From positions 1,120,001-1,184,000 of the forward strand of contig CAXXYH010000004.1 of NCBI GenBank assembly GCA_963677925.2: a DNA stretch of 64,000 bases, in the 5' to 3' direction. The position numbers were made by a program, and so were the translations under genes. The stretch is from Spirochaetia bacterium. Lineage in GTDB: Bacteria; Spirochaetota; Spirochaetia; UBA9216. Positions 6,482-31,040 of the stretch are shown in pieces. Below the pieces are notes generated by a model. It searched no databases, had not been told where the DNA came from, and saw only the letters and a list, made by a program, of their open reading frames with translations. The number at the start of each line of letters is the position of its first letter. The first letter of the stretch is position 1.

Positions 6482-7126
6482 GTGAAGGATATTACCAAGG
6501 AGATAAAATTGTCAGTACCTGTTTTTGAAGTTGGACCCATTGATCATACCATTGTATATTCCTTTGCTGTCGGGTTTATTCTTGCCTGGCTGATATTCGG
6601 AATCAGGATACTGGTACTCAAATCCCGCAGTAAAAAGGCAATCCGGGGGCTTAAACATACGCTTACCAGCAGAATTGACCTTGATTCCGAGTCGATCGAC
6701 CGGATGCGGAAGGAAATTGAATTACTGCGGAAGAAGAATGCAAACCTTCAGTCTTCTATTTCAAACCTTTCACAGAAGTCCGGCCGGAAGGAAAACCTCC
6801 AGCTTAGGATTTATCAGGATGCTGTGGAGAAGATGTCACTTCAGGCTCCCGGCTTTGCGCCGGCCTGGCAGATAGTGCTTCGTGAATGTGAAGAGGAAAA
6901 CGGCCGAAGCCTTGACGGTTCAAAGGTTTTTACAAAAAGGATTACTCCGGCCGCCGGAAGCGGCTGGATAACTGATGCCGGCAGCCGGGAACCTCGTGAG
7001 GCCCGTTCCGCAGAGACTGTAATTGAGCATGATTCCCAGCTTTCCGGTTCACCGTCGGCGGGTGCTTCAGCTAAACCGGAAAAGGCTGCAAAGCAGGGCC
7101 TTCTTGCTAAGCTGCGGAATCGATGA
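6482..7126 (+). CDS. Hypothetical membrane-anchored coiled-coil protein
   Basis: One N-terminal TM helix, a coiled coil and a low-complexity tail. Confidence 0.7.
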   Translation: MKDITKEIKLSVPVFEVGPIDHTIVYSFAVGFILAWLIFGIRILVLKSRSKKAIRGLKHTLTSRIDLDSESIDRMRKEIELLRKKNANLQSSISNLSQKSGRKENLQLRIYQDAVEKMSLQAPGFAPAWQIVLRECEEENGRSLDGSKVFTKRITPAAGSGWITDAGSREPREARSAETVIEHDSQLSGSPSAGASAKPEKAAKQGLLAKLRNR

Positions 7127-7139
7127 ATACGATCAGTCT

Positions 7140-7865
7140 CTATGAGACGAAACTCATTACAAAGCCGATAAGGCCGCCGAATACTCCGCCCCAGACTACA
7201 AGCCATCCAAGATGCCTTCTCATCATTTCTTTTACAAGTTCCTTAACCATCTTCGGTGTAAGTTCATCCAGTCTGCCCTGAACGATACCGTCAACCTTGT
7301 CTTTTATTACTGCGGAGAGGTCGAAATTCCCGGATTCGAGAATACCCTTGATAAACTTGGGATGTGCAACTTCTTCAAGAAGATATTCCCTGATTTTTTC
7401 CTTAAATTTGCCCCGGTATTTCTCAAACAGACCGTCGCCCCCGAACATTGAGAGCATGCTGCCGAATCCGCTTGAGAGAATCTCTTTCTTAACTGTGTCG
7501 TAGATCTTGTCATAGTCGACCTTGTCAACTGCAGACTCAAAGTCTATCGATTCAAGGATCATATCCTGACCCTCGCTGAAATACTTGTGGAGATTTTCAG
7601 TCGTAAAAAACTGGTCCATCACAAGTTCCTTGATCCATACCTTTATCTCGATAAAATGGGCCGGGATTACACCGGAACCGTAGAGTCCGGGAACCTTTTC
7701 AAACAGCATGAAAATCGCAAGCCAGTTTGTAAGAGCTCCAGAAAGAGCAAAGAAGCCTATGCTTCTGATTCTTTCACCCCACACCGGATCAAGGCGGGCG
7801 GCTATGATGTATCCCGCAGCAATTACAGCTGCAGCAATAAGGTTTGTTACAGAGCTTTTGTTCAT
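7140..7865 (-). CDS. DUF445-family membrane protein
   Basis: GALTNWLAIFMLF and a C-terminal HLGWLVVWGGVFGGLIG. Confidence 0.85.
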   Translation of the reverse strand: MNKSSVTNLIAAAVIAAGYIIAARLDPVWGERIRSIGFFALSGALTNWLAIFMLFEKVPGLYGSGVIPAHFIEIKVWIKELVMDQFFTTENLHKYFSEGQDMILESIDFESAVDKVDYDKIYDTVKKEILSSGFGSMLSMFGGDGLFEKYRGKFKEKIREYLLEEVAHPKFIKGILESGNFDLSAVIKDKVDGIVQGRLDELTPKMVKELVKEMMRRHLGWLVVWGGVFGGLIGFVMSFVS

Positions 7866-7985
7866 TAATACCTCTAAAAATTTGTATTTTTACGAATTTA
7901 TCAGTAAAATATACATACGCTTCAGCCCTCCGGCAATACCTATTTGAGAATACCGGAAAAGAGGGCATGTGTATCGGAGATTGAG

Positions 7986-9509
7986 ATGAAAGAGAGCCTG
8001 TCAAACCTTAAACAGCTAGGGCGAGAGATTTATTTAATGCAGCATGCCCAGGCCGTACTTGAATGGGACATGGAAACCCAGATGCCTGAAGACGGCGCCG
8101 AAGAACGTGCCGAACAGCTTGCACTTTTTGAAGGATTAACACACAGAAAAATAACTTCCCCTGAAATTGGACGTCTGCTGTCGTTTCTCGGCGCAGAGGA
8201 AGGTAAACCCGAGGGAAAGGGTGATTTCGATACCGCAGACAAGGCCTTCGTCCGTGAAATGTTCCGGATGTACAGTCATGCTTCCAAGCTGCCTGAAAGC
8301 CTTGTAACTGAACTTGCAAAACAGACCGGAATTTCCCACCAGGTATGGGTTGAGGCGAGAAAGAAGGCTGATTTCAGTATATTTGAAGATTCTCTTACAA
8401 AGATATATGAACTGAACCATCAGAAGGCTGAGAAACTCGGCTATAAAGAACATCCCTATGATGCCCTGCTTGATGAATATGAACCCTGGATGACTGCGTC
8501 CGAGGTTGAAAAGGTTTTTACCCCCCTTGCTGCTGAACTTTCCGCCCTGGTTGCGGATATTAAAAAGGCGGGTGCTCCTGACTCATCGTTTCTGGAAAAA
8601 AGCTACCCGACAGACCTGCAGGATAAGTTCGGCCGTATGCTTATCGACCGGATGGGATACCCGGAAAAGAGGGGCAGGCTGGATATATCGGCACATCCGT
8701 TTACAACGACCCTGGGTGCAGATGATGTAAGAATAACCACCCGCTACGATGAAAAACTCGTAATGAGCGGGGTATTCAGTAATATTCACGAATGCGGACA
8801 CGCCCTCTATGAGCTCGGTGTAGGAGATAATCTGAAAGGCGGAATCCTCGGTACCGGTGTGTCGCTTGGTATCCATGAATCACAGTCACGTTTCTGGGAA
8901 AACCTTGTAGGCCGCAGCCTTCCGTTCTGGAAGCATTTTTATCCTGAGTTTTCAAAGCTCTTTCCAGAGCAGACTAAGGGTGTCGATGTGGAAACCTTCT
9001 ATAAAGCCGTTAACAAGGTGACTCCGTCATTCATACGTATTGAAGCCGACGAGGTTACTTACAGTCTCCATGTGGTTCTCCGCTTTGAGCTTGAAAAGGA
9101 AGTTCTTTCCGGAAACCTCAAGGTTTCAGATCTTCCTGATGAATGGAACAGAAGGATGAAGAAATTTCTGGGTATAACCCCTGCCAACGATTCCGAAGGC
9201 GTGCTCCAGGATGTACACTGGTCTGCGGGGCTGATAGGTTATTTTCCGACCTATGCTCTTGGAAACCTCTACGGCGCCCAGTTTCTCAACAGCATGAAAA
9301 AGCAGCTGGGAGATGTGGACGGAATATTAGAATCAGGCGATCTGGGTACAATACTCGGGTGGCTGCGTGAGAATATCCACAGTCACGGTATGGTTTACCC
9401 CGCCTCCGAGCTCTGCAGAAGAGTCACAGGAGAGGATTTGAACGCCGCCTACTTTACAGACTACCTTCGGGATAAATTCGGCGGAATATATGGACTTCGC
9501 GGGAATTAA
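7986..9509 (+). CDS. Carboxypeptidase M32 (Taq-type)
   Basis: HPF, DVRITTRY, HECGH zinc motif, HESQSRFWEN, IRIEADE, GVLQDVHW. Confidence 0.96.
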   Translation: MKESLSNLKQLGREIYLMQHAQAVLEWDMETQMPEDGAEERAEQLALFEGLTHRKITSPEIGRLLSFLGAEEGKPEGKGDFDTADKAFVREMFRMYSHASKLPESLVTELAKQTGISHQVWVEARKKADFSIFEDSLTKIYELNHQKAEKLGYKEHPYDALLDEYEPWMTASEVEKVFTPLAAELSALVADIKKAGAPDSSFLEKSYPTDLQDKFGRMLIDRMGYPEKRGRLDISAHPFTTTLGADDVRITTRYDEKLVMSGVFSNIHECGHALYELGVGDNLKGGILGTGVSLGIHESQSRFWENLVGRSLPFWKHFYPEFSKLFPEQTKGVDVETFYKAVNKVTPSFIRIEADEVTYSLHVVLRFELEKEVLSGNLKVSDLPDEWNRRMKKFLGITPANDSEGVLQDVHWSAGLIGYFPTYALGNLYGAQFLNSMKKQLGDVDGILESGDLGTILGWLRENIHSHGMVYPASELCRRVTGEDLNAAYFTDYLRDKFGGIYGLRGN

Positions 9510-10227
9510 TCCCGAAAATCAGTACCTGTGGCTGACTCTGGCCGGTTTTGCTCTGGGCAGCGGAATCAGTTTTTTCAGCCACAGAAAGCCGCGCAGGCAT
9601 CCGGCGGCGGCTGTACTATTTATCAGTTTATCAATTCTCTTTCTTACTTTCGGAATATTTTTAAGCAGCTACAGCTTCTGGAATTACAAGGTGCTGCTTG
9701 TATGGTTCGGAGCACTCACAGTTTCCGGCTTCCTCTGTGTCAGGTTCTGGCGCTTTGTAGGTATTCCTGTATTCTCCCTGTTTTTTGCGGCTCTTTTTAT
9801 TTTTTATTACAGTTTCGCCTCCTGGTCGCCGGTTCAGCCGGGACAAAATCTGTGCAGTTTTACACTTCTTTCAGGCGGCGGCGATAAAACTACAATTTTG
9901 AGTGAAGATACGCAAAATAATCAGGATGTACTTGAATTCGGCGCCGGAGGGATCTATCCTGAAATCAGGATGCTTGAACTTCCGCACTGGTTTTTCCTGT
10001 CCAGAACAGGGGCCATATATGAGCCTCTGCATTCACAGTTTGCAGCAGAGGAAAACGGAGATTCTGAGAGCGCTCCGGCGGTTAAGATCAGGCAGCTTTT
10101 CGGACGGATTCCGGGCTTTATTTTTGTAACTGAAAGTGCAGGACCCCTCTATCCGGTTCCCGGAGTCCGATATGATTTGTCATTCAATTCCGACGGTCTG
10201 CCGGCCATAAAAAAAAGAATTGACTGA
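9490..10227 (+). CDS. Hypothetical membrane protein
   Basis: Four N-terminal hydrophobic segments; overlaps the upstream stop. Confidence 0.7.
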   Translation: MDFAGINPENQYLWLTLAGFALGSGISFFSHRKPRRHPAAAVLFISLSILFLTFGIFLSSYSFWNYKVLLVWFGALTVSGFLCVRFWRFVGIPVFSLFFAALFIFYYSFASWSPVQPGQNLCSFTLLSGGGDKTTILSEDTQNNQDVLEFGAGGIYPEIRMLELPHWFFLSRTGAIYEPLHSQFAAEENGDSESAPAVKIRQLFGRIPGFIFVTESAGPLYPVPGVRYDLSFNSDGLPAIKKRID

Positions 10228-10274
10228 TAAAATGATGCTCACGCTATTGAGGAGCGTGCCCGATACAGTAATAT

Positions 10275-10568
10275 ATGCTGATAACATTCTACAAACCAGA
10301 AGAAGACGGAAGTCTCAGATACTACTCGGTCCATGACCGTCAGCCTACATTGTTCAGTAAGTATTCATTCACTTCGATCTACGGTATGAATCAGGGAAGC
10401 GGACGCGAACGCGTTTATTCTTTTACAACCCGGCGTGAAATGGATAAAAAGATGAGAGAAATATTCAACGAAAGAGTGAAAGACGGCTACAAGGTCCTGT
10501 ACTCGTTTGCAAGAAACAAGAAGTACGTCAGCATGTTCGATGAAGTCTCGAAGATGAACGCCGGATAG
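10275..10568 (+). CDS. Small WGR-domain-like protein
   Basis: RYYSVHDRQPTLF...YG...G...KDGY pattern resembles a WGR domain. Confidence 0.55.
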   Translation: MLITFYKPEEDGSLRYYSVHDRQPTLFSKYSFTSIYGMNQGSGRERVYSFTTRREMDKKMREIFNERVKDGYKVLYSFARNKKYVSMFDEVSKMNAG

Positions 10569-10602
10569 AGTATACTGCTCAACCGGTTTTCTGGCTCTCC
10601 GC

Positions 10603-11379
10603 TCAGATACTCCCGATATTCTTTGCAATTTCCTCTGCGGTTTTAATAGTAGCTTTTTTCAGCTCTTCCGTTTCAAGAGCCCTGTTCAGCTGCGACTCTA
10701 TGCAGCATAGCGAAAGCGCCGCTTTCAGCGGGGCAGAATCAGAACCTATGATAACCGCAATATCCGTAACTCCGGCTGTTAGAGTGCTTTTTCTAACTAT
10801 ATAGCGGTTTTTATTGATCTCGTCTATCAGCTTAAGCTCTTGCAGCTTTGCTTCTTCGGACATGTTCTGATATTCATTTAACTGTTGGAGAATTTGTAAT
10901 CGGTTTTCCGGATTGTACTGGGCCAGGAGAGTTCTGCCTGAGGTTGTAGCCAGAAGCGGATATGTTCTTCCTTCTTCCATCGATACGGAAATCGGTCCCG
11001 GGCTCAGTGTAGGGGCTACAATCATAATCTGATTTTCATGCATGACTGTAATGTGACTGGCCTGATTTGCAAATGCTGAAAGTTTTTTCATCAGCGGTCT
11101 GGCCGCTTCTCTAAGTTTTTCAATAGGTGAGTGGCAGTGCGAGAGGTTGTACAGTTTGAGCGTCATCTGGTAGCAGCCTGTTGCCGAATCCCTGCTTATG
11201 TATCCCCGCTCATCAAGACACATCAGCATTCTGTAGATTTCGTTAGGATTGCGGTTTGTGCCCTTTGCTATATCGGTCTGTGTAAGGGGTTCGGCTGATG
11301 ACGCCAGGAACTCAAGGATTTCCAGGCCCTTCTCAAGGGCGGGAGCGCTGTACTTCATCTTCTTATCATCTGTACTCAT
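10603..11379 (-). CDS. IclR-family transcriptional regulator
   Basis: YSAPALEKGLEILEFLA HTH; TTSGRTLLA effector-domain motif; divergent from the sugar-acid operon. Confidence 0.93.
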   Translation of the reverse strand: MSTDDKKMKYSAPALEKGLEILEFLASSAEPLTQTDIAKGTNRNPNEIYRMLMCLDERGYISRDSATGCYQMTLKLYNLSHCHSPIEKLREAARPLMKKLSAFANQASHITVMHENQIMIVAPTLSPGPISVSMEEGRTYPLLATTSGRTLLAQYNPENRLQILQQLNEYQNMSEEAKLQELKLIDEINKNRYIVRKSTLTAGVTDIAVIIGSDSAPLKAALSLCCIESQLNRALETEELKKATIKTAEEIAKNIGSI

Positions 11380-16159: not shown

Positions 16160-16276
16160 AGCACAAGGGCTGAACAGCTGCAGAGCAGCAGCCGTCCAGT
16201 CCGGAACACTGAACCCGCAGCCCTGCATCGCTGCGGGGAGCTGGGTACAAATCCCTGCACAAGGAAATGCATCAAA

Positions 16277-17065
16277 GTGAAAAATGTAAAAGAGTTTCTT
16301 TCAGACTGCCCTCAAAAGATAAAGTATGTACTTACCGATATCGATGATACCCTGACAGAGGAAGGAAAACTTGGCGCAGATGCATATTCAGCCCTGTGGA
16401 GGCTGCATGATGCGGGCTTTACAGTGATCCCTGTAACCGGACGTCCGGCAGGCTGGTGCGATATGATAATCCGCCAGTGGCCTGTTGATGCAGTAATAGG
16501 TGAGAACGGCGCCTTTGTCTACTATTTTGAAGACCATCAGCTTAAGACCTACACACACCCCTCAGTTGCTGATACCGATGTGAGAAAGAAGCTTGATGAT
16601 GTATACGATGCAGTAAAGACTGAAATTCCCCTGGTCCGGAAGGCAAAAGATCAGTTTGCAAGAATCTATGATCTTGCAATTGATTTCAACGAGGATCCTC
16701 CGCGGCTCGGCTATGAAGCGGCCGGACGGATTAAGGATATATGTGAGGCCCAGGGCGCGATAGCCAAGGTCAGCTCGATTCATGTAAACACCTGGTTCGG
16801 TGATTATTCAAAGATAGGAATGGCAGAGCTCTTTATGAAATACCGCTACGGCCTTGATTCTGATGCTTTTAAACAATCCTCCGTCTTCTGCGGTGACTCT
16901 CCCAACGATGAGCCTATGTTCAACTTCCTGCCTTACTCCTTCGCCGTAGCCAATATCCGCGACTTTGATGATATGCTCGTCCACCGTCCTGCCTACATCG
17001 CAGACTCAAGAGGAGGAAGCGGCTTTGTAGAAATTTCTGATGTGCTTATAAACAGCATCAGCTGA
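16277..17065 (+). CDS. HAD-superfamily subfamily IIB hydrolase
   Basis: DIDDTL, VTGR, GDSPND motifs. Confidence 0.9.
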   Translation: MKNVKEFLSDCPQKIKYVLTDIDDTLTEEGKLGADAYSALWRLHDAGFTVIPVTGRPAGWCDMIIRQWPVDAVIGENGAFVYYFEDHQLKTYTHPSVADTDVRKKLDDVYDAVKTEIPLVRKAKDQFARIYDLAIDFNEDPPRLGYEAAGRIKDICEAQGAIAKVSSIHVNTWFGDYSKIGMAELFMKYRYGLDSDAFKQSSVFCGDSPNDEPMFNFLPYSFAVANIRDFDDMLVHRPAYIADSRGGSGFVEISDVLINSIS

Positions 17066-17067
17066 CT

Positions 17068-18000
17068 GTGACGGGAGGATATGAAGTGGATGAGATAATC
17101 AGATGGCTTCTTGAAGGCGATGCCTCGATCGCGTATCAGACCTGCCGTGACCTTCTTGATACAGACAGACCTGAACTTCAGATAAAAGCCGCTGGCGAGG
17201 GGTGGGGTAAAATTCTTCTTGATGCACAGCGTCCCGACGGTCACTGGGGCCTGAAGTTCTATCAGCCCAAATGGACATCTACCCACTATACGCTGCTGGA
17301 TTTACGCAACCTGTGCATTCCTGCTGAAACTCCAGCAGTGCAGGAAACTGTTGAAATGCTTCTGGAGCAGGAGAAGGGTGTGGATGGAGGAATAAATCCG
17401 CCCGGATCTGTAAAACAGAGTGACGTCTGTTTAAACGGAATGTTTCTGAATTATGCCTGCTATTTTAATGCTGATCCTGAAAAGCTTGTATCAGTAATTG
17501 ATTATATGCTTGATCAGAGACTTCCAGACGGCGGATATAACTGTCAGTTTAACCGCAAAGGTGCTGTTCACAGCTCACTGCATTCCAGTCTTTCCGTAGC
17601 CGAAGGCTTCACCGAATACCTGAAAAACGGCTACTCCTACCGAGCCGATGAAATCAAAAGCTCTCTCGGCGGGATTCGTGATTTTATCTTTCGGCACAGA
17701 CTGTTCCGTTCAGATCGAACCGGTGAAATAATTAAGAAAGATTTCCTCCGTTTTCCGTATCCGCCGAGATGGCGTTATGACATTCTGCGGGCAATGGATT
17801 ATTTCAGGTATTCGGAAACGCTTTACGCCCCGGCTATGGATGAAGCAATAGCTATAATCAAAAGCAAGCAAAAACCTCCCGGTCACTGGAACGCCCAGGC
17901 CTCCCTGCCGGGGCAGGTTCACATTCATTTTGAACAGGCTGGCACCCCCGGCAGGTGGAATACGCTGCGGGCTCTTCGTCTACTTAAATTTTATTGCTGA
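17068..18000 (+). CDS. Hypothetical protein with a prenyltransferase/squalene cyclase-like fold
   Basis: Repeated QxxDGxW-like motifs (QRPDGHW, QRLPDGGY); conserved YDILRAMDYF. Confidence 0.7.
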   Translation: MTGGYEVDEIIRWLLEGDASIAYQTCRDLLDTDRPELQIKAAGEGWGKILLDAQRPDGHWGLKFYQPKWTSTHYTLLDLRNLCIPAETPAVQETVEMLLEQEKGVDGGINPPGSVKQSDVCLNGMFLNYACYFNADPEKLVSVIDYMLDQRLPDGGYNCQFNRKGAVHSSLHSSLSVAEGFTEYLKNGYSYRADEIKSSLGGIRDFIFRHRLFRSDRTGEIIKKDFLRFPYPPRWRYDILRAMDYFRYSETLYAPAMDEAIAIIKSKQKPPGHWNAQASLPGQVHIHFEQAGTPGRWNTLRALRLLKFYC

Positions 18001-18042
18001 TTCGTCACAGGTCTGCTAATATAAAATAAAACGGATAAAGTA

Positions 18043-19116
18043 TTGGCAGTTGAAATCGTTTATGAAGAAAATAATAAAATTGGTATAATTTTCCCTTTTG
18101 ATGCCCAGATTCTGGATATTGTACGCACAATACCCGGAAGACAATGGCAGCCCGCAAATAAAAAATGGACATTTCCGGATACTGATGCAAATATGCAGCA
18201 TTTTCTCTTATCATTATATAAAACCGGCAGGTTTAATGTGGATGAGAAGGCTCTCGAAAATCAGGAACCGTCTCATAGCCGCTATTTGGAAAAAATGCTT
18301 CAGTATCTAAAGCTTAGAGACTATAGTCCTCATACTATTGAAACGTATAAGATGCAGCTCAAGTGGTTCTTTGATAGAACAGAACTTTCTCCTTCAGAAG
18401 TCACGACCGAGGATATCAAATTATATCTGGAGAAAATGCGGACACTGGCGGGGTGTTCAAGAACATACTTTGTACAATGTGTGAGCGCCCTGAAAAGCTT
18501 CTATAAGTATGGTTATCCCGGCGGTCTGTTTAATCCTGCAGCATCGATTCCCATGCCGAAAAAAGAAAAGAAGTATCCGGATATTCTATCCAGGGAAGAA
18601 GTGAAGAAGATAATAACATCTCCGTCGAATATTAAGCACCGATTGCTATTATCATTAATATACTCTGCAGGTCTCCGAGTAAGCGAAGCCGTTATAATAC
18701 AGTTGCAGGATATTGATACCGATAGGAAAGTAATTCATATCAGGCAGGCAAAAGGACGAAAAGATAGATATGTAATGCTTTCAACTGAGATTATTAATAT
18801 GATTAATCAATACAGATCCAAAGTGATGGTGCATACATGGCTTTTTCCTGGCAGTGCAGGTGCGGATACCCATCTTGCTACAAGATCTGCACAGAATGCC
18901 TTTTATAAAGCTATAGAAGCAACAGGTATCGAAAAAAATGTAAGTATACATTCTTTAAGACATGCCTTTGCCACTCATCTGTTGGAAAACGGTACAGACC
19001 TGAGATATATTCAGGAGCTCTTAGGTCACCGTGATCCAAAAACAACACAGATTTATACACATGTAAGTACTAAAGACCTAAAAAATATAAATAGTCCACT
19101 GGACGGGTTATTATGA
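18043..19116 (+). CDS. Tyrosine recombinase, putative non-canonical integron integrase
   Basis: SAM-like domain (YSPHTIETY); catalytic R (GLRVSE), K (AKGRKDR), HxxR (HSLRH), H (LLGH), Y (TQIYTHV); directly abuts the cassette array. Confidence 0.93.
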   Translation: MAVEIVYEENNKIGIIFPFDAQILDIVRTIPGRQWQPANKKWTFPDTDANMQHFLLSLYKTGRFNVDEKALENQEPSHSRYLEKMLQYLKLRDYSPHTIETYKMQLKWFFDRTELSPSEVTTEDIKLYLEKMRTLAGCSRTYFVQCVSALKSFYKYGYPGGLFNPAASIPMPKKEKKYPDILSREEVKKIITSPSNIKHRLLLSLIYSAGLRVSEAVIIQLQDIDTDRKVIHIRQAKGRKDRYVMLSTEIINMINQYRSKVMVHTWLFPGSAGADTHLATRSAQNAFYKAIEATGIEKNVSIHSLRHAFATHLLENGTDLRYIQELLGHRDPKTTQIYTHVSTKDLKNINSPLDGLL

Positions 19117-19190
19117 ATAACAGGTTTATAAGGATTTAAGCTGGAGGGTTATATGAATGATATACCAGTTTATAATTCTGAGTTTATATG
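19105..19190 (+). promoter_or_regulatory. Putative attI-like primary recombination site
   Basis: Repeated GTT(T)ATA motifs (gggttattatgaat..gtttataa and gggttatatgaat..gtttataa); the first cassette left end TTATATGCAATGGACCCGAC starts at about 19184. Confidence 0.6.
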
Positions 19191-19265
19191 CAATGGACCC
19201 GACAAGAGGAAGACGCCCGGACCTCCGGCCGACGGGCGAAGAGACATAAAGGTGGGGGATTTTTT

Positions 19266-20735
19266 ATGCAAGATTTATATATAAAATATAATAAGAAAGA
19301 TAATAAAATTGATTTTGGGCAAACAAAAGGCTCAATAATCGAGATTACTATAAAGCCACCTTCAATCGTTAAAGAAACAAAAGAAACAGGCATAACGAGA
19401 ATATCTGCTATTCAAGAAGATTTTGATAATCTAATTTCGGGAAAGAAGATGATTGACGTTAATAAAACGACTCTCGAACATTGTTATATCTTGGATAAAA
19501 AGGATCCTTACCGATTAGCGGCGACAAATTTTATTTTAAAAAATGAAAAGGATATTGAAGAATATAGTGAAATTCCAAAAGAAAATGATGCTGGTATATA
19601 TAAAAACTATGTAAAAGCATTTTTAGAAGAATTTACAAGATGTACGAAACACATTCCGTTTGCTGAAAAAATTAAAGTCTATCCTTTACCATTGTTGACT
19701 CCATGTAATGTGGAAGTATTAGTAGGTAAAGATGGTGTGTGCTTTATTTTCTCATCAGAAAGTAGACCTGAAAAAGTAAGTGTTTCCTTAGATATAAATA
19801 AAATAATAGAGGAACTTCTTCTGCCTCATCCTACTAATAGAAGATATTCATCATATGGACCTAATACTATTTTTAATTTTATCTGCTCAGATGAGAATTT
19901 TATACATGTGGTAGGGGATGGGAATGCGTTTTTAGATTCTATGCTAGGGAATCCAGTATTTTTGATTTTTGAAAAATCGTTTCATGGTTATTATTCCAAT
20001 ATGAATTTTATAAGAAATTATCCTGATACGGGACTTCAAGTTAAAAAGAAAGTTGAATATTGTGAAATATTTGGTAATAACCATATCTCTAACTTTTCAC
20101 TTGAAAACGCAAGGAGTAGAGCTAGGATAGTTGCGTATAAATCAATTTTGAGTAGTGTTACAGGAAATGTTAATAAAGTAGAAGAACTTAAAAATGTCTT
20201 GATAGAATTGAAAAACAAAATAAACAATGATGTCGGTGAAATAGAAATTGAGAAATTTATTGATTCAAATAAATGGATTTTAGAGAAAGGGATAGGGTGT
20301 CAAAAATATTTTTCACAAATTTCGATACCGAAAGATTTATTATATGATGCTGATGGTGGAATTAAACCTGATAAATATATGATGAATAATGACGGATATT
20401 GTGATATTTTAGATTTAAAAAAACCATCAGCCAAACTAATTGTAATAAAGAATAACCGCAGTCATCAATCTAGTTCTTTAACCGAAGCGGAGGCACAAAT
20501 TGATAAATATATTGATTTCTCTCGTGAACCAAAGGTTAGAGATTATTTATTAACGCTTAATATAAAAATTACGAAACCTGATGGAATTGTATTGATTGGG
20601 AGAACCCCGAAGGAATATTTAAAAGAATGGATTGATATAAAAAAGAGATTACAAATAAAAGTATATACTTATGATGATTTAGTTAATAATTTGGATAATT
20701 TAATTGATTGGATAGATAAGATTCTTACAATTTGA
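19266..20735 (+). CDS. Cassette 1: Shedu (SduA/DUF4263)-like anti-phage nuclease
   Basis: C-terminal EKFIDSNKWIL...KPD...ILDLKKP...LTEAEAQ...PDGIVLIGR...VYTYDDL; RBS ggtggggg before ATG 19266. Confidence 0.75.
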   Translation: MQDLYIKYNKKDNKIDFGQTKGSIIEITIKPPSIVKETKETGITRISAIQEDFDNLISGKKMIDVNKTTLEHCYILDKKDPYRLAATNFILKNEKDIEEYSEIPKENDAGIYKNYVKAFLEEFTRCTKHIPFAEKIKVYPLPLLTPCNVEVLVGKDGVCFIFSSESRPEKVSVSLDINKIIEELLLPHPTNRRYSSYGPNTIFNFICSDENFIHVVGDGNAFLDSMLGNPVFLIFEKSFHGYYSNMNFIRNYPDTGLQVKKKVEYCEIFGNNHISNFSLENARSRARIVAYKSILSSVTGNVNKVEELKNVLIELKNKINNDVGEIEIEKFIDSNKWILEKGIGCQKYFSQISIPKDLLYDADGGIKPDKYMMNNDGYCDILDLKKPSAKLIVIKNNRSHQSSSLTEAEAQIDKYIDFSREPKVRDYLLTLNIKITKPDGIVLIGRTPKEYLKEWIDIKKRLQIKVYTYDDLVNNLDNLIDWIDKILTI

Positions 20736-22520: not shown

Positions 22521-22843
22521 GCATAACAGGGGCTATATGCTCGTCGCTAAACGCTCCTTGGGCTTCGCCACATTTTTATTTTCTGAATTGGGTAATTGGG
22601 TACAGCATTTAACAAGAGATTTGGAGTAGTCAAAACCTTTGTCACAGTTCTGGCTAAAGACACTCCGCGCTGATCGCGCTACGTTCCAGAACTGCGCCAA
22701 GCCTCGGAGACTCGGCCGGTTTCGCTACTCAAATCGTCGTTAAATGCACAGAAATGTGCCAATAGTTTATGATTGAGAAATACGGGTAAGTGGTGGTAAA
22801 ATTAAGAAAAATAAAAACGTCATATAACCCCGGGGCGTTATGA
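22521..22843 (+). repeat. Long attC-like site 3 with a nested attC
   Basis: Same outer stem as the short sites; contains gcatttaac (22605)...gttaaatgc (22747). Confidence 0.88.
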
Positions 22844-27637: not shown

Positions 27638-27816
27638 AGATAACAGCGGCTATGTGCGGCGTCGCTAAACGCTCCTTGGCCTACGGCATATTTTGTTTTG
27701 GCATCGCTTTTGCGAAGAGGTAGAAAAATATAGGGTAAAGGCGTCGAATGCAAAAGTGCTGCCAATCGGCCTGTAGGGCCGACCACAAAACATCACATAA
27801 CCGCGGGACGTTATAG
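27638..27816 (+). repeat. attC-like site 8 (extended apical arm)
   Basis: agataac-agcggctatgtg...cacataaccgc-gggac-gttatag. Confidence 0.85.
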
Positions 27817-29057: not shown

Positions 29058-29156
29058 TAAAGTTTGTTTTGGGATACTGTTAAAGTTGAAAGTTGTATGT
29101 TTAAGAGTCCAGCCCTATCTCCGATGTACGGTCTGGCTCAAGAGCCAAAATACTTC

Positions 29157-29479
29157 CTATAACAGGGGCTATATGCTCAGCCCATTCGGGCTTCGGGCTG
29201 CGCCACATTTTTATTTTATGGATTGGGCTATTTGGGTATAGCATTTAACAAAAGTTTTGGAGCAGTCCTGGCTATTGTCATGATTCTGGCAGAGACGTTC
29301 CGCGCTGATCGCGCTGCACTCCAGAATCACGCCAATGCGCGCGAAGACACGCGCCGCCATGCAGCTCAAAACGTCGTTAAATGCACAGACATGCGCCAAT
29401 AGTTTGTGATTGGTAAATACGGGTAAGTGGTGGTAAAATTAAAAAAATAAAAACGTCATATAACCCCGGGACGTTATGC
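29157..29479 (+). repeat. Long attC-like site 9 with a nested attC
   Basis: ctataac...gttatgc; inner element at 29241-29384. Confidence 0.88.
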
Positions 29480-29950
29480 GGACATCGCCGGAGCATGGTT
29501 ATGGGGTGGAGAAAGTTCCGAACAAGAAGTGATTACCAAATAGTTTGCAATATTCAATTCGCCCTAGATTGAGGAAGATTTTTGATTTTGATTTGGATGT
29601 TGTTGGAAGAAGGTCGTTAAAATTGACGAAGCTTGTTCTGGCGTGAAAGAAAAAGTATTGTCTTAAAATTATCAAAATCTTTTTTGAAGATGGAGCAGGT
29701 TTTACCATTTTGCAAGTCTGATTCACTCGCATAGCTCGTTGACTTGCGACTTAATAAAAATGATTGTTTTACTTGCAAAGGGCGAATAGAATATTGAGAA
29801 GAAATAGAAAGAGAAGATTGTATAGATTATTTGATTGATCGGAATCTTTCTCTAATAAAGGCGACGTCGCATAACAGGGCACATGCGGCTACGGGGTCAA
29901 GCCCCTTCGCCCAAATTGGCCTGCGGCCAACTTCGCATATGCCCGGGACG
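29474..29950 (+). other. Cassette 10: ORF-less structured cassette (includes attC-like site 10, 29869-29956)
   Basis: No credible + strand ORF; nested inverted repeats; diverged tandem copy follows. Confidence 0.8.
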
Positions 29951-30426
29951 TTATGCGGACATCGCCGTAGCATGATCTTGGGGTGGAGAAAGTTCCGAAC
30001 CAGAAGTGATTACCAAATAGTTTGCAATATTCAATTCGCCCTGGATTGAGGGAGATTTTGGATTTTGATTTTGTGGTTGTCAGAAGAAAGCCGTTGCATC
30101 TGACGAAGTTTATTCTGACGTGGAAAAAAGTATTGTTTTATAATTATCAAAATCTGCTTCGTGGACTTGGCAGGGTTTTCCGTTTGGCAAGTCTGCCTCA
30201 CTCGCTTTGCTCGTTGACTTGCAGGTGAAATAAAAATGATTGTGAAAGTCGCAAAGGGCGAATAGAATATTGGGTAGAAATGGTAAGAGGAGATTTGTTA
30301 GGTCATTTGATTGATCGGAATCTTTCTCTAATAAAGGCGACGTCGCATAACAGGGCACATGCGGCTACGGGGGCAAGCCCCTTCGCCCAAATTGGCCTGC
30401 GGCCAACTTCGCATATGCCCGGGACG
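29951..30426 (+). other. Cassette 11: ORF-less structured cassette, paralogue of cassette 10 (includes attC-like site 11, 30345-30432)
   Basis: 476 bp versus 477 bp; stems conserved while linkers have diverged. Confidence 0.8.
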
Positions 30427-30500
30427 TTATAGGAAATGCCCATCAAAATCTTTGAAAGATCCTCGCCATCCATGGCTCGGTTTAGAAGAATAGAAAGAAG

Positions 30501-30529
30501 TTGACAATCCACTACAATGTAATTACAGT
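30501..30529 (+). promoter_or_regulatory. Sigma70 promoter of the brnT-brnA cassette
   Basis: TTGACA-17 bp-TACAGT, overlapping palindrome tgtaattaca. Confidence 0.7.
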
Positions 30530-30535
30530 ATAAAT

Positions 30536-30820
30536 ATGGAACATATCCAGTTTGAATGGGATAATAAGAAAGATGAGCTAAATCAGAAGAAGCATAAGAT
30601 AGGTTTTGACGAGGCAAAAACTGTATTTTATGATCCATCTGCATTGTTGATTCATGATCCAGATCATTCTGAAGATGAAGAAAGATTCATAATTATGGGG
30701 ATGAGTCAAAGCTTGAAGATCTTAGTTGTTTGTCATTGTTATAGATCTAATGATGAAGTTATACGAATAATATCTGCTAGAAAAGCAGAGAAAGAAGAGA
30801 TTAGGCAATATGGAGGATGA
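30536..30820 (+). CDS. brnT: Cassette 12: BrnT-family toxin
   Basis: FEWDNKK...NQKKHKIGF...EERFIIMG...IRIISARKA. Confidence 0.93.
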   Translation: MEHIQFEWDNKKDELNQKKHKIGFDEAKTVFYDPSALLIHDPDHSEDEERFIIMGMSQSLKILVVCHCYRSNDEVIRIISARKAEKEEIRQYGG

Positions 30821-30824
30821 AGAT

Positions 30825-31040
30825 ATGAGAGATTCATATGATTTTTCGAATGCAAGAAAGAATCCTTACATTACAAAATTAAAGAAGCAAATCACAATCA
30901 GATTGGATGAAGAAACCATAGATTATTTTAAAGAGATGTCAGAAGAATCAGGGATAAAATATCAGCAATTAATAAATCTTTATCTGGCTGATTGTGCAAA
31001 GAAAAATCTAAAATTAAATATAAATTGGAAAGCCTCTTAA
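30825..31040 (+). CDS. brnA: Cassette 12: BrnA-family antitoxin
   Basis: YDFSNARKNPY...KKQITIRLD...YQQLIN. Confidence 0.9.
   Translation: MRDSYDFSNARKNPYITKLKKQITIRLDEETIDYFKEMSEESGIKYQQLINLYLADCAKKNLKLNINWKAS

Follow-up and report, generated by a model that had tools for sequence, protein, structure and literature searches.

A family of gene-free integron cassettes with a conserved cassette-wide fold in a Spirochaetia bacterium

Two gene-free cassettes in a chromosomal integron

The DNA analyzed here (the window, to which all coordinates refer unless another sequence is named) is a stretch of 64,000 nucleotides (nt) from a Spirochaetia bacterium (assembly GCA_963677925.2, contig CAXXYH010000004.1, positions 1,120,001 to 1,184,000 of the forward strand). 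It contains a sedentary chromosomal integron of the Treponema type, in which the cassettes and the recombinase gene have the same orientation. Within this array lie two tandem cassettes without a gene, W1 (29474-29950, + strand) and W2 (29951-30426, + strand). We report that they belong to a mobile and amplified family in which the pairing of a long hairpin has been conserved.

The array is served by an integron-integrase-like tyrosine recombinase (18043-19116, + strand; Pfam Phage_integrase, E = 2e-42), whose sequence makes it a borderline candidate for an integron integrase. It scores 194 bits, in two stretches, against NCBIfam TIGR02249 "integron integrase" (cut-off 265) and exceeds the cut-off of NF040815 "tyrosine recombinase/integron integrase" (232.5 vs. 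220); its best relatives of solved structure are archaeal XerA-like proteins, with IntI4 (2a3v) in third place. The attI crossover is found next to the recombinase gene, near 19182-19185. Beyond it, the array has a GC content of 31-37%, compared with 41-50% in the flanks, its open reading frames (ORFs) are oriented like the recombinase gene, and the junction motif GGGACGTTA occurs 22 times where 7.2 occurrences are expected. The content of the array is typical, comprising a Shedu-like protein, many type II toxin-antitoxin pairs, acetyltransferases, and methyltransferases.

Cassettes were delimited from the TT of one G/TTAT crossover (the slash marks the exchange point) through the G of the next. 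By this rule, W1 comprises 477 nt (a 402-nt non-coding core plus attC) and W2 comprises 476 nt (a 401-nt non-coding core plus attC), and the two adjoin, so that the coordinates and lengths given in a preliminary description of the window, made from its sequence alone, proved exact. The attC site of W1 runs from R″ GCATAAC to R′ GTTATGC (29869-29956, + strand), its final 6 nt lying inside W2; that of W2 (30345-30432, + strand) likewise ends with 6 nt inside the following cassette, which encodes BrnT/BrnA. Both units thus have the hallmarks of an integron cassette, namely an inverse core (RYYYAAC) and a core (GTTRRRY) with crossover between G and TT, here GCATAAC ... G/TTATGC, and their L boxes covary across three attC variants. 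The cores of W1 and W2 (~400 nt) are 83.6% identical overall and 75% identical in the middle third, whilst the attC part of the alignment differs by a single base. As had been noted, the pair stands directly upstream of a toxin-antitoxin block, which opens with BrnT/BrnA (30536-31040) and continues with Phd/ParE, MazE/PemK, and PIN pairs.

Five nested stems

The four nested arm pairs named in the preliminary description are present in both cassettes, and we found a fifth, terminal pair, P1 (TTATGCGGACATCGCC / GGCGACGTCGCATAAC). With these, the whole 400-nt insert forms an imperfect hairpin in which five stems (P1 to P5) are nested and which continues the stem of the cassette's own attC. In W1, the arms lie at 29474-29489/29860-29875 (P1), 29509-29521/29839-29852 (P2), 29548-29565/29779-29796 (P3; 18 nt, 94% complementary), 29584-29592/29671-29679 (P4), and 29712-29718/29741-29747 (P5, the apical hairpin). 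The corresponding arms of W2 lie at 29951-29966/30336-30351 (P1), 29986-29998/30315-30328 (P2), 30025-30042/30255-30272 (P3), 30061-30069/30146-30154 (P4), and 30187-30193/30216-30222 (P5).

The terminal stem has to be set apart from the other four. P1 extends the R-box duplex of attC and is generic to the cassettes of the array: four neighboring ORF-bearing cassettes have the same kind of complementarity, of 20-21 nt, between start and end. We therefore regard P1 as a property of the attC sites of this array and not of the W1/W2 core. Indeed, in every cassette examined, the first bases are complementary over 20-21 nt to the bases that end in the inverse core (27810-27830/29143-29163, 30426-30445/31081-31100, 31182-31201/31970-31989, and 32069-32089/32778-32798), and the R-box duplex of attC in a circular cassette would therefore be about three times as long as the 7-bp core/inverse-core boxes (RYYYAAC/GTTRRRY) themselves.

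Related copies and evidence of mobility

Relatives were identified by one exact-pattern scan of a genome collection with an 18-mer, a procedure that diverged relatives, such as the second family described below had it occurred alone, would escape. The scan matched 51 loci, of which 42 were single chance matches around which no further similarity was found. The other nine overlap on contig OZ223272.1, a metagenome-assembled genome of a Spirochaetia bacterium, whose recombinase gene and flank are 95.5% identical to 16258-19184 of the window. This is a close relative with a different array, of which 24 kb were covered and 28 cassette intervals were delimited. The covered part of the OZ223272.1 array holds 15 copies of the family: ten belong to family A, with cassettes of 472-483 nt (A1 to A10), and five to family B, with cassettes of 561-563 nt and cores that align end to end with those of family A at ~60% identity. 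The family-B cassettes, all on the minus strand, are located at L017:2280-2842, L016:3803-4365, L012:2288-2849, L010:2049-2609, and L037:4610-5172. The two families thus occupy 15 of the 28 delimited intervals.

W1 matches the family with E = 6e-116 (nhmmer), and the nearest copy of W2 is A5, with which it shares 92.3% core identity and the attC type. A profile of the 17 cores from both genomes, run with nhmmer against the window, the related array, and the other 42 scan loci, revealed neither further copies nor a third family. Similarly, blastn in distant mode gave no match in a plasmid collection for the W1 core (29474-29866) or a family-B core, and none in a phage collection for the W2 core.

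Five lineages can be recognized: W1, W2, A4, a main family-A cluster with core identities of 96-100%, and B. Since W1 and W2 are separate lineages among the five, they are not the product of a recent tandem duplication. The most telling copy is A1, which lies directly at attI and is identical at 483 of 483 positions to the distal copy A10; the flanks of the two differ and the homology ends at the cassette borders. It follows that the unit moves precisely as a cassette, a discrete unit inserted at attI, and by its sequence this pattern is the signature of recombinase-mediated copying into attI. The cores of A5 and A7 are 99.8% identical, yet their attC types differ. Among the scan matches, the OZ223272.1 copies occur only inside its array.

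Two suggestions made from the window alone did not survive this comparison. In the related genome, the copies adjoin many different cassettes, so that the adjacency of W1 and W2 to toxin-antitoxin cassettes is incidental. Nor does the idea of an "empty cassette scaffold" fit the units, given that the core has conserved sequence blocks and is amplified.

The attC region of family B (~165 nt) is much longer than that of family A, and the same attC type also ends an ORF-bearing cassette of the window (27640-27814). We considered that A and B copies might be functionally paired and dropped the idea, as the number of runs of non-coding cassettes in the related array, eight, is what a hand calculation predicts by chance (~7.8).

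Conservation follows the pairing

Folded as RNA, the W2 core is more stable than its dinucleotide shuffles on both strands (z = −4.6 on the + strand and −6.2 on the − strand). The same applies to the whole of W1 (z = −3.9 and −6.5) and to a core of family B (z = −3.4 and −4.1), and not one of the 100 shuffles made for each was as good. RNAalifold, applied to the 17 cores, returned a structure of 61 pairs comprising the nested stems P1-P5 and two small hairpins, in which eight pairs show compensatory changes. In this structure, which was picked on the same 17 sequences on which it was then scored, 99.3% of the alignment cells are paired, as opposed to 33-48% after the partners have been shifted by 1-3 columns, and these slid controls contain 0-1 compensatory pairs.

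An independent test was provided by the 47 pairs of the preliminary description, which derive from the window alone and could be read in the consensus of family B at ~60% identity. There, 42 of them pair (38 Watson-Crick and four G-T), two are A-C oppositions, and three are mismatches; 32 are unchanged, and of the seven that changed on both sides six are still paired. Slid controls gave 15-18 Watson-Crick pairs. A score for chains of nested exact inverted repeats, computed for 15 cassettes of the window, gave z = 3.8-4.0 for W1 and W2; it discriminates poorly, because two ORF-bearing cassettes reached 3.5 and 4.9.

The distribution of substitutions points the same way. The linkers had been described as visibly diverged, with an even spread of changes over stems and loops named as the outcome that would speak against a structural constraint. 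Between W1 and W2, differences affect six of 122 paired columns (4.9%) and 60 of 281 unpaired columns (21.4%). The corresponding values are 1.6% and 10.3% for W2 and A5, which share the attC type, 0.8% and 17.0% for W2 and A4, and 17% and 48% for A5 and B1. In every pair of lineages compared, paired columns thus diverge 3-20 times less than unpaired ones. Genes flanking the array differ between the two genomes at 8-12% of third codon positions and at 0.8-2.5% of first and second positions. Measured against these genes, the linkers would drift at about the rate of third codon positions, and the stems would be held like first and second positions.

No conserved reading frame

The statement that W1 and W2 share no ORF requires modification, in that two short frames are common to both, one of 25 amino acids (aa) on the + strand (29495-29572) and one of 27 aa on the − strand (29474-29557). 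Neither behaves as coding in the homologues. Between W1 and W2, the 25-aa frame has undergone four changes, two of them synonymous and two conservative; it is intact in ten of 12 family-A copies, is cut by premature stops in A2 and A8, and has R, I, T, or K at residue 11. A longer + strand frame of 68/69 aa is open in seven of 12 family-A copies and stopped or shifted in the other five, three of which have no start codon. Its middle is read in different frames by W2 and A1, it ends after 13 codons in family B, and the 68-aa version has no homologue among the proteins of 37-119 aa in a library of 5.8 billion clusters. Insertions and deletions of 1, 2, and 3 nt segregate among the copies. All lineages have just one frame in common, a minus-strand frame of 21-48 aa whose stop is the invariant TAA of the crossover site; W1 and W2 differ at four of its residues, each time by an amino acid replacement. 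In a 50-aa frame of family B, all five variable sites change the protein, and one of them removes the stop.

We rejected the 25-aa, 68/69-aa, 27-aa, and family-B 50-aa frames as small protein genes on account of these stops, frameshifts, and non-synonymous changes. A conserved small ORF was another outcome named beforehand as speaking against a structural explanation, and no ORF is conserved across the family. For comparison with published definitions, Blanco et al. (2024) call a cassette gene-less if it has no annotated gene and no ORF >210 bp; minus-strand frames of 77 aa in W1 and 82 aa in W2 exceed this length, and none is conserved in the homologues.

A promoter-like site within stem P3

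A sigma-70-like site, TTGTGA (TTGTTT in W1), 17 nt, TAGAAT, is the sole promoter-like site common to all 17 copies. It is located at 29764-29792 in W1 and 30240-30268 in W2 (both + strand), ~75 nt before attC, and points through attC into the next cassette. The 3′ arm of P3 includes its −10 hexamer, whose conservation is therefore not independent evidence for a promoter. The motif scores 8-9 of 12, and in this AT-rich DNA there are nine such sites in 1.6 kb where 3.5 are expected. Across the families, the 17 copies share no promoter-like site at their 5′ ends, and a scan of 29100-30700 predicted no terminator. A simple promoter as the reason for the conservation had been named beforehand as a further outcome against a structural explanation; this is partly borne out, as the motif is in 17 of 17 copies, but it lies within one stem and cannot explain the others.

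RNA or single-stranded DNA

The preliminary description concluded that selection acts on structure and pointed to a non-coding RNA or a structured single-stranded DNA. The first part is upheld insofar as conservation tracks pairing and not a reading frame. As to the molecule, the consensus fold of the + strand (−50.0 kcal/mol, 61 pairs, eight compensatory) is matched by that of the reverse complement (−46.3 kcal/mol, 62 pairs, nine compensatory), and because both strands fold equally well the two kinds of molecule are not distinguishable in this way. The available text of Weinberg et al. (2017; PMC5737381) likewise treats motifs of single-stranded DNA and of RNA as inseparable by sequence analysis. 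Folded as circular single-stranded DNA, either strand forms the attC hairpin followed by nested P1-P5, at about equal energy (−67 to −73 kcal/mol).

The Rfam search that had been proposed gave no match at gathering scores in the whole window; against 29100-30600, with hits up to E = 10 admitted, Rfam (15) yielded only a chance snoRNA at 13.8 bits. A retron non-coding RNA was discarded as a candidate, as Pfam found no reverse transcriptase domain in 50 ORFs scanned in and around the array. Nor did we find a description of a conserved fold of an ORF-less cassette in the literature searched, which excluded subscription-only papers.

A self-propagating cassette?

What, then, might the fold be for? 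We tentatively favor, while rating it below even likelihood, the view that W1 and W2 represent a self-propagating non-coding cassette, the fold of whose single-stranded DNA serves its own recombination and spread. A cassette that becomes single-stranded, as an excised circle or as an intermediate of replication or transfer, would fold into a rod that has attC and the P5 loop as its two ends. The selected property would then be the DNA fold itself, which might keep the attC R-box paired and the cassette compact, such that the recombinase of the array could efficiently excise the cassette and re-insert it at attI. In this manner, the cassette would multiply in arrays as a parasite of the integron, much as a miniature inverted-repeat transposable element (MITE) exploits a transposase. 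As a side effect, the outward sigma-70-like site in each copy, if it fires, could restart transcription of the next cassette. We favor this explanation because the family is gene-free, moves as a cassette, and is strongly amplified in one genome, the cassette-wide hairpin is coaxial with attC and held by selection, the strands are equivalent, and the 5′ promoter-like site and terminator that an autonomous RNA gene would need are missing.

Several observations weigh against it. That the fold acts on DNA and would raise the efficiency of recombination is something that we infer. All eight compensatory pairs separate lineage A from lineage B only, so that the eight compensations rest on one branch; three of them are in P1, which is generic to the array, and the number of pairs with changes in both partners did not exceed that of a shuffle control, being attained in 204 of 500 shuffles. 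On the + strand, G-T oppositions outnumber A-C oppositions by 2.4-3.4 to 1, where 1.6-2.0 is expected from composition; the excess is not significant, and it leans weakly toward the top strand, whereas the attC strand that is recombined is the bottom one. Between families A and B, conservation extends to blocks that are unpaired in the consensus, namely the P5 loop, TTCTGACGTT, and AAATAAAAA-GATTGTGAAAGTC, for which a mere clamp would have no use. The family is known from no more than two genomes, which are close relatives. Finally, several ORF-bearing cassettes of the OZ223272.1 array are also duplicated, with 2-4 diverged copies each (merged loci, in reverse-complement coordinates, 7092-11266; 3973/13225/24074; 15735/16869), and duplication is therefore not unique to the family.

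The self-propagating cassette may be taken one step further. The gene-free unit could have evolved into a rod-shaped, viroid-like circle of single-stranded DNA, whose sole "phenotype" would be that the recombinase of the host array excises and re-inserts it efficiently, and in which the conserved, duplexed −10 box and the loop motifs might serve priming or protection, like a single-strand origin. We consider this form possible and decidedly speculative.

As the conserved unpaired blocks are not explained by a self-propagating DNA fold, a structured RNA and a promoter cassette both stay in play. The former, which we regard as a doubtful though serious candidate, would owe its transcription to the array promoter, to read-through, or to a promoter in a copy further upstream, and would act in trans as a small RNA (sRNA) or in cis on the polycistronic cassette transcript, by processing or stabilizing it. 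The multi-stem fold with its compensatory changes would suit such an RNA, as would the conserved loop sequences, including the P5 loop between two covarying pairs. The absolute folding energy in family A is also lower on the + strand (−109 to −125 kcal/mol) than on the minus strand (−88 to −97 kcal/mol). Reading the sequence of 19140-19185 by eye, we noted a TATAAT box at ~19171-19176, a few bases ahead of the attI crossover, so that array transcripts may begin at base 1 of the first cassette and a copy in that position could be transcribed from its first base. There is also a precedent in the integron-encoded sRNA-Xcc1 (cited in PMC6557892 and PMC8876359, and here taken from those citations). 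Set against this are the lack of an Rfam match, of a family-wide 5′ promoter-like site, and of a predicted terminator, together with the lack of strand asymmetry, as the minus-strand consensus fold is as good and its z-scores are at least as strong. Moreover, the one promoter-like site conserved throughout the family is internal to the fold, and a transcript from it would be devoid of the 5′ arms.

An ordinary promoter cassette that restarts transcription of downstream cassettes, with inverted repeats that are incidental or regulatory (for example, protein-binding sites), seems to us unlikely. It would account for the sense-strand site, which all 17 copies have and which is directed into the next cassette, and it accords with assays in which most of 29 gene-less Vibrio cassettes had sense-strand promoter activity (PMC11014356, available text) and with the promoter activity that the accessible part of PMC6557892 reports for ORF-less Treponema cassettes. 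However, a promoter of 29 nt leaves five nested stems with compensatory changes over 400 nt unexplained, and the motif itself has a modest score, is frequent in this DNA, and would have its −10 hexamer conserved in any case as part of P3. Many copies precede another non-coding copy (W1-W2, A2-A3, A7-A8, and five A/B adjacencies), 15 promoters in 28 cassettes appear excessive, and the BrnT/BrnA cassette that follows W2 has a promoter-like site of its own (30501-30529).

We think it improbable that the units are functionless relics, that is, an old inverted duplication or a decayed palindromic, MITE-like insertion whose arms have stayed complementary through gene conversion between copies, the fold itself being free of selection. 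Homogenization is plausible in view of the many near-identical copies, and attC modules have been exchanged between almost identical cores (A5/A7). Yet families A and B, at ~60% identity, are too diverged for mutual conversion and have nevertheless kept the stems with compensatory changes, and the contrast between linkers and stems described above, with rates resembling those of third and of first and second codon positions, also speaks against a relic. A MITE or insertion sequence origin was rejected on further grounds: by eye, there is no target-site duplication or direct repeat beside the P2 arms, no copy at a site outside arrays exists among the window and the scan matches, and Pfam found no transposase or reverse transcriptase domain in the 50 ORFs scanned. 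Least probable by far is a small protein encoded by the 25-aa or 68-aa + frame or the 27-aa − frame, the first and last of which are kept in both window copies, given the premature stops, the broken 68/69-aa frames, the segregating indels, and the amino acid changes detailed above.

Comparison with known systems

The closest published counterparts are the promoter-bearing ORF-less cassettes of Treponema and the Vibrionaceae (Tansirichaiya et al., 2019, PMC6557892; Blanco et al., 2024, PMC11014356). W1 and W2 resemble them as gene-free, attC-bounded units of ~480 nt in a Treponema-type array, with the recombinase gene oriented like the cassettes, and in having a sense sigma-70-like site. The W1/W2 family differs from them in having five nested covarying stems, in filling 15 of 28 intervals, and in that its promoter is only a predicted one. 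No conserved secondary structure is described in the available text of these papers, and the terms "secondary structure" and "hairpin" occur 0 times in the main texts of PMC6557892 and PMC11014356. The BPROM table in the supplement of PMC6557892 lists predicted hexamers only, among which there is no TAGAAT box. sRNA-Xcc1, from an ORF-less integron cassette of Xanthomonas campestris (Chen et al., 2011, as cited in PMC6557892 and PMC8876359), is also a non-coding cassette for which an RNA-level function has been proposed; for W1/W2, a discrete transcript would be hypothetical, and the fold extends over the entire cassette with equal quality on either strand.

A second group of counterparts consists of folded DNA. 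The attC sites and the multistem DUF1874 motif, which the available text of Weinberg et al. (2017; PMC5737381) suspects to be an unusual attC, are hairpins of single-stranded DNA that are recognized by structure, as W1/W2 may be, and have covarying arms, as W1/W2 do; the stems of the W1/W2 core continue the attC R-box duplex. Unlike an attC, the core has no R″/L″/L′/R′ boxes, is found on the far side of the R-box, extends over 400 nt, and belongs to a cassette with a normal attC. The window contains no Rfam family at gathering score, which would include the DUF1874 motif if that motif belongs to the Rfam set.

MITEs, repetitive extragenic palindromic (REP) sequences, and enterobacterial repetitive intergenic consensus (ERIC) sequences are short, non-coding, multi-copy long hairpins that are propagated by an enzyme encoded elsewhere. 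The W1/W2 family resembles them in each of these respects. In contrast to MITEs, its ends are attC crossover points and not terminal inverted repeats with target-site duplications, and its copies are confined to arrays. The origins ssoA and Frpo, of rolling-circle and F-type plasmids, respectively, are imperfect hairpins of 200-300 nt that work only as single-stranded DNA and whose stem places promoter hexamers in a duplex. The only conserved −10-like hexamer of the W1/W2 family is likewise inside a stem, P3, which we take as a resemblance only; the −35-like hexamer is not in a long stem, we saw no sso signature motif known to us in the sequence, and a role in priming would be hypothetical.

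According to figures quoted in the available text of PMC11014356, gene-less cassettes account for 6-49% of the cassettes of Vibrio chromosomal integrons, and such cassettes are now explained mainly as promoters. A family that owes its maintenance to its fold and has come to fill about half of an array would, if our interpretation is correct, add a second category, be it a structured RNA or a self-propagating cassette that tunes recombination. It would also offer a natural test object for the influence of sequence outside attC on attC folding and cassette dynamics. Should the cassettes indeed be parasites of the integron, they would be the first known selfish element that exploits integron recombination, and self-propagating junk could then make up much of an array, in one genome about half of the cassettes that were examined.

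Other features of the array

The first cassette after attI (19188-20735) encodes a protein of 515 aa with a Shedu SduA C-terminal domain (Pfam), and the gene in first position would, by this domain, be one for anti-phage defense.

Eight different ORF-bearing cassettes have in common a GC-rich leader hairpin ~28 nt past the cassette start. Its 20-nt motif, GACGCCCGGACCTCCGGCCG, occurs on the + strand with up to three mismatches at 19212, 20905, 21780, 22866, 26898, 27839, 31211, and 33748 (start positions), with a chance expectation of 0. The stem is CGCCCG/CGGGCG and the loop holds CCTCC, which is anti-Shine-Dalgarno-like, with a purine-rich stretch after it; cassette leaders may thus have an element in common that acts in translation or as RNA.

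The array also contains four copies of an unusually long attC-type unit of ~325 nt, one at 29151-29476 and the others ending at 22834, 24076, and 25358. Normal R″/L″ and L′/R′ ends enclose a GC-richer insert of ~240 nt that has an inverted repeat (29274-29289/29321-29336) and opposite-strand frames of 59 and 62 aa. One of these copies adjoins W1 on its upstream side, and the same unit is found ahead of A4 in OZ223272.1.

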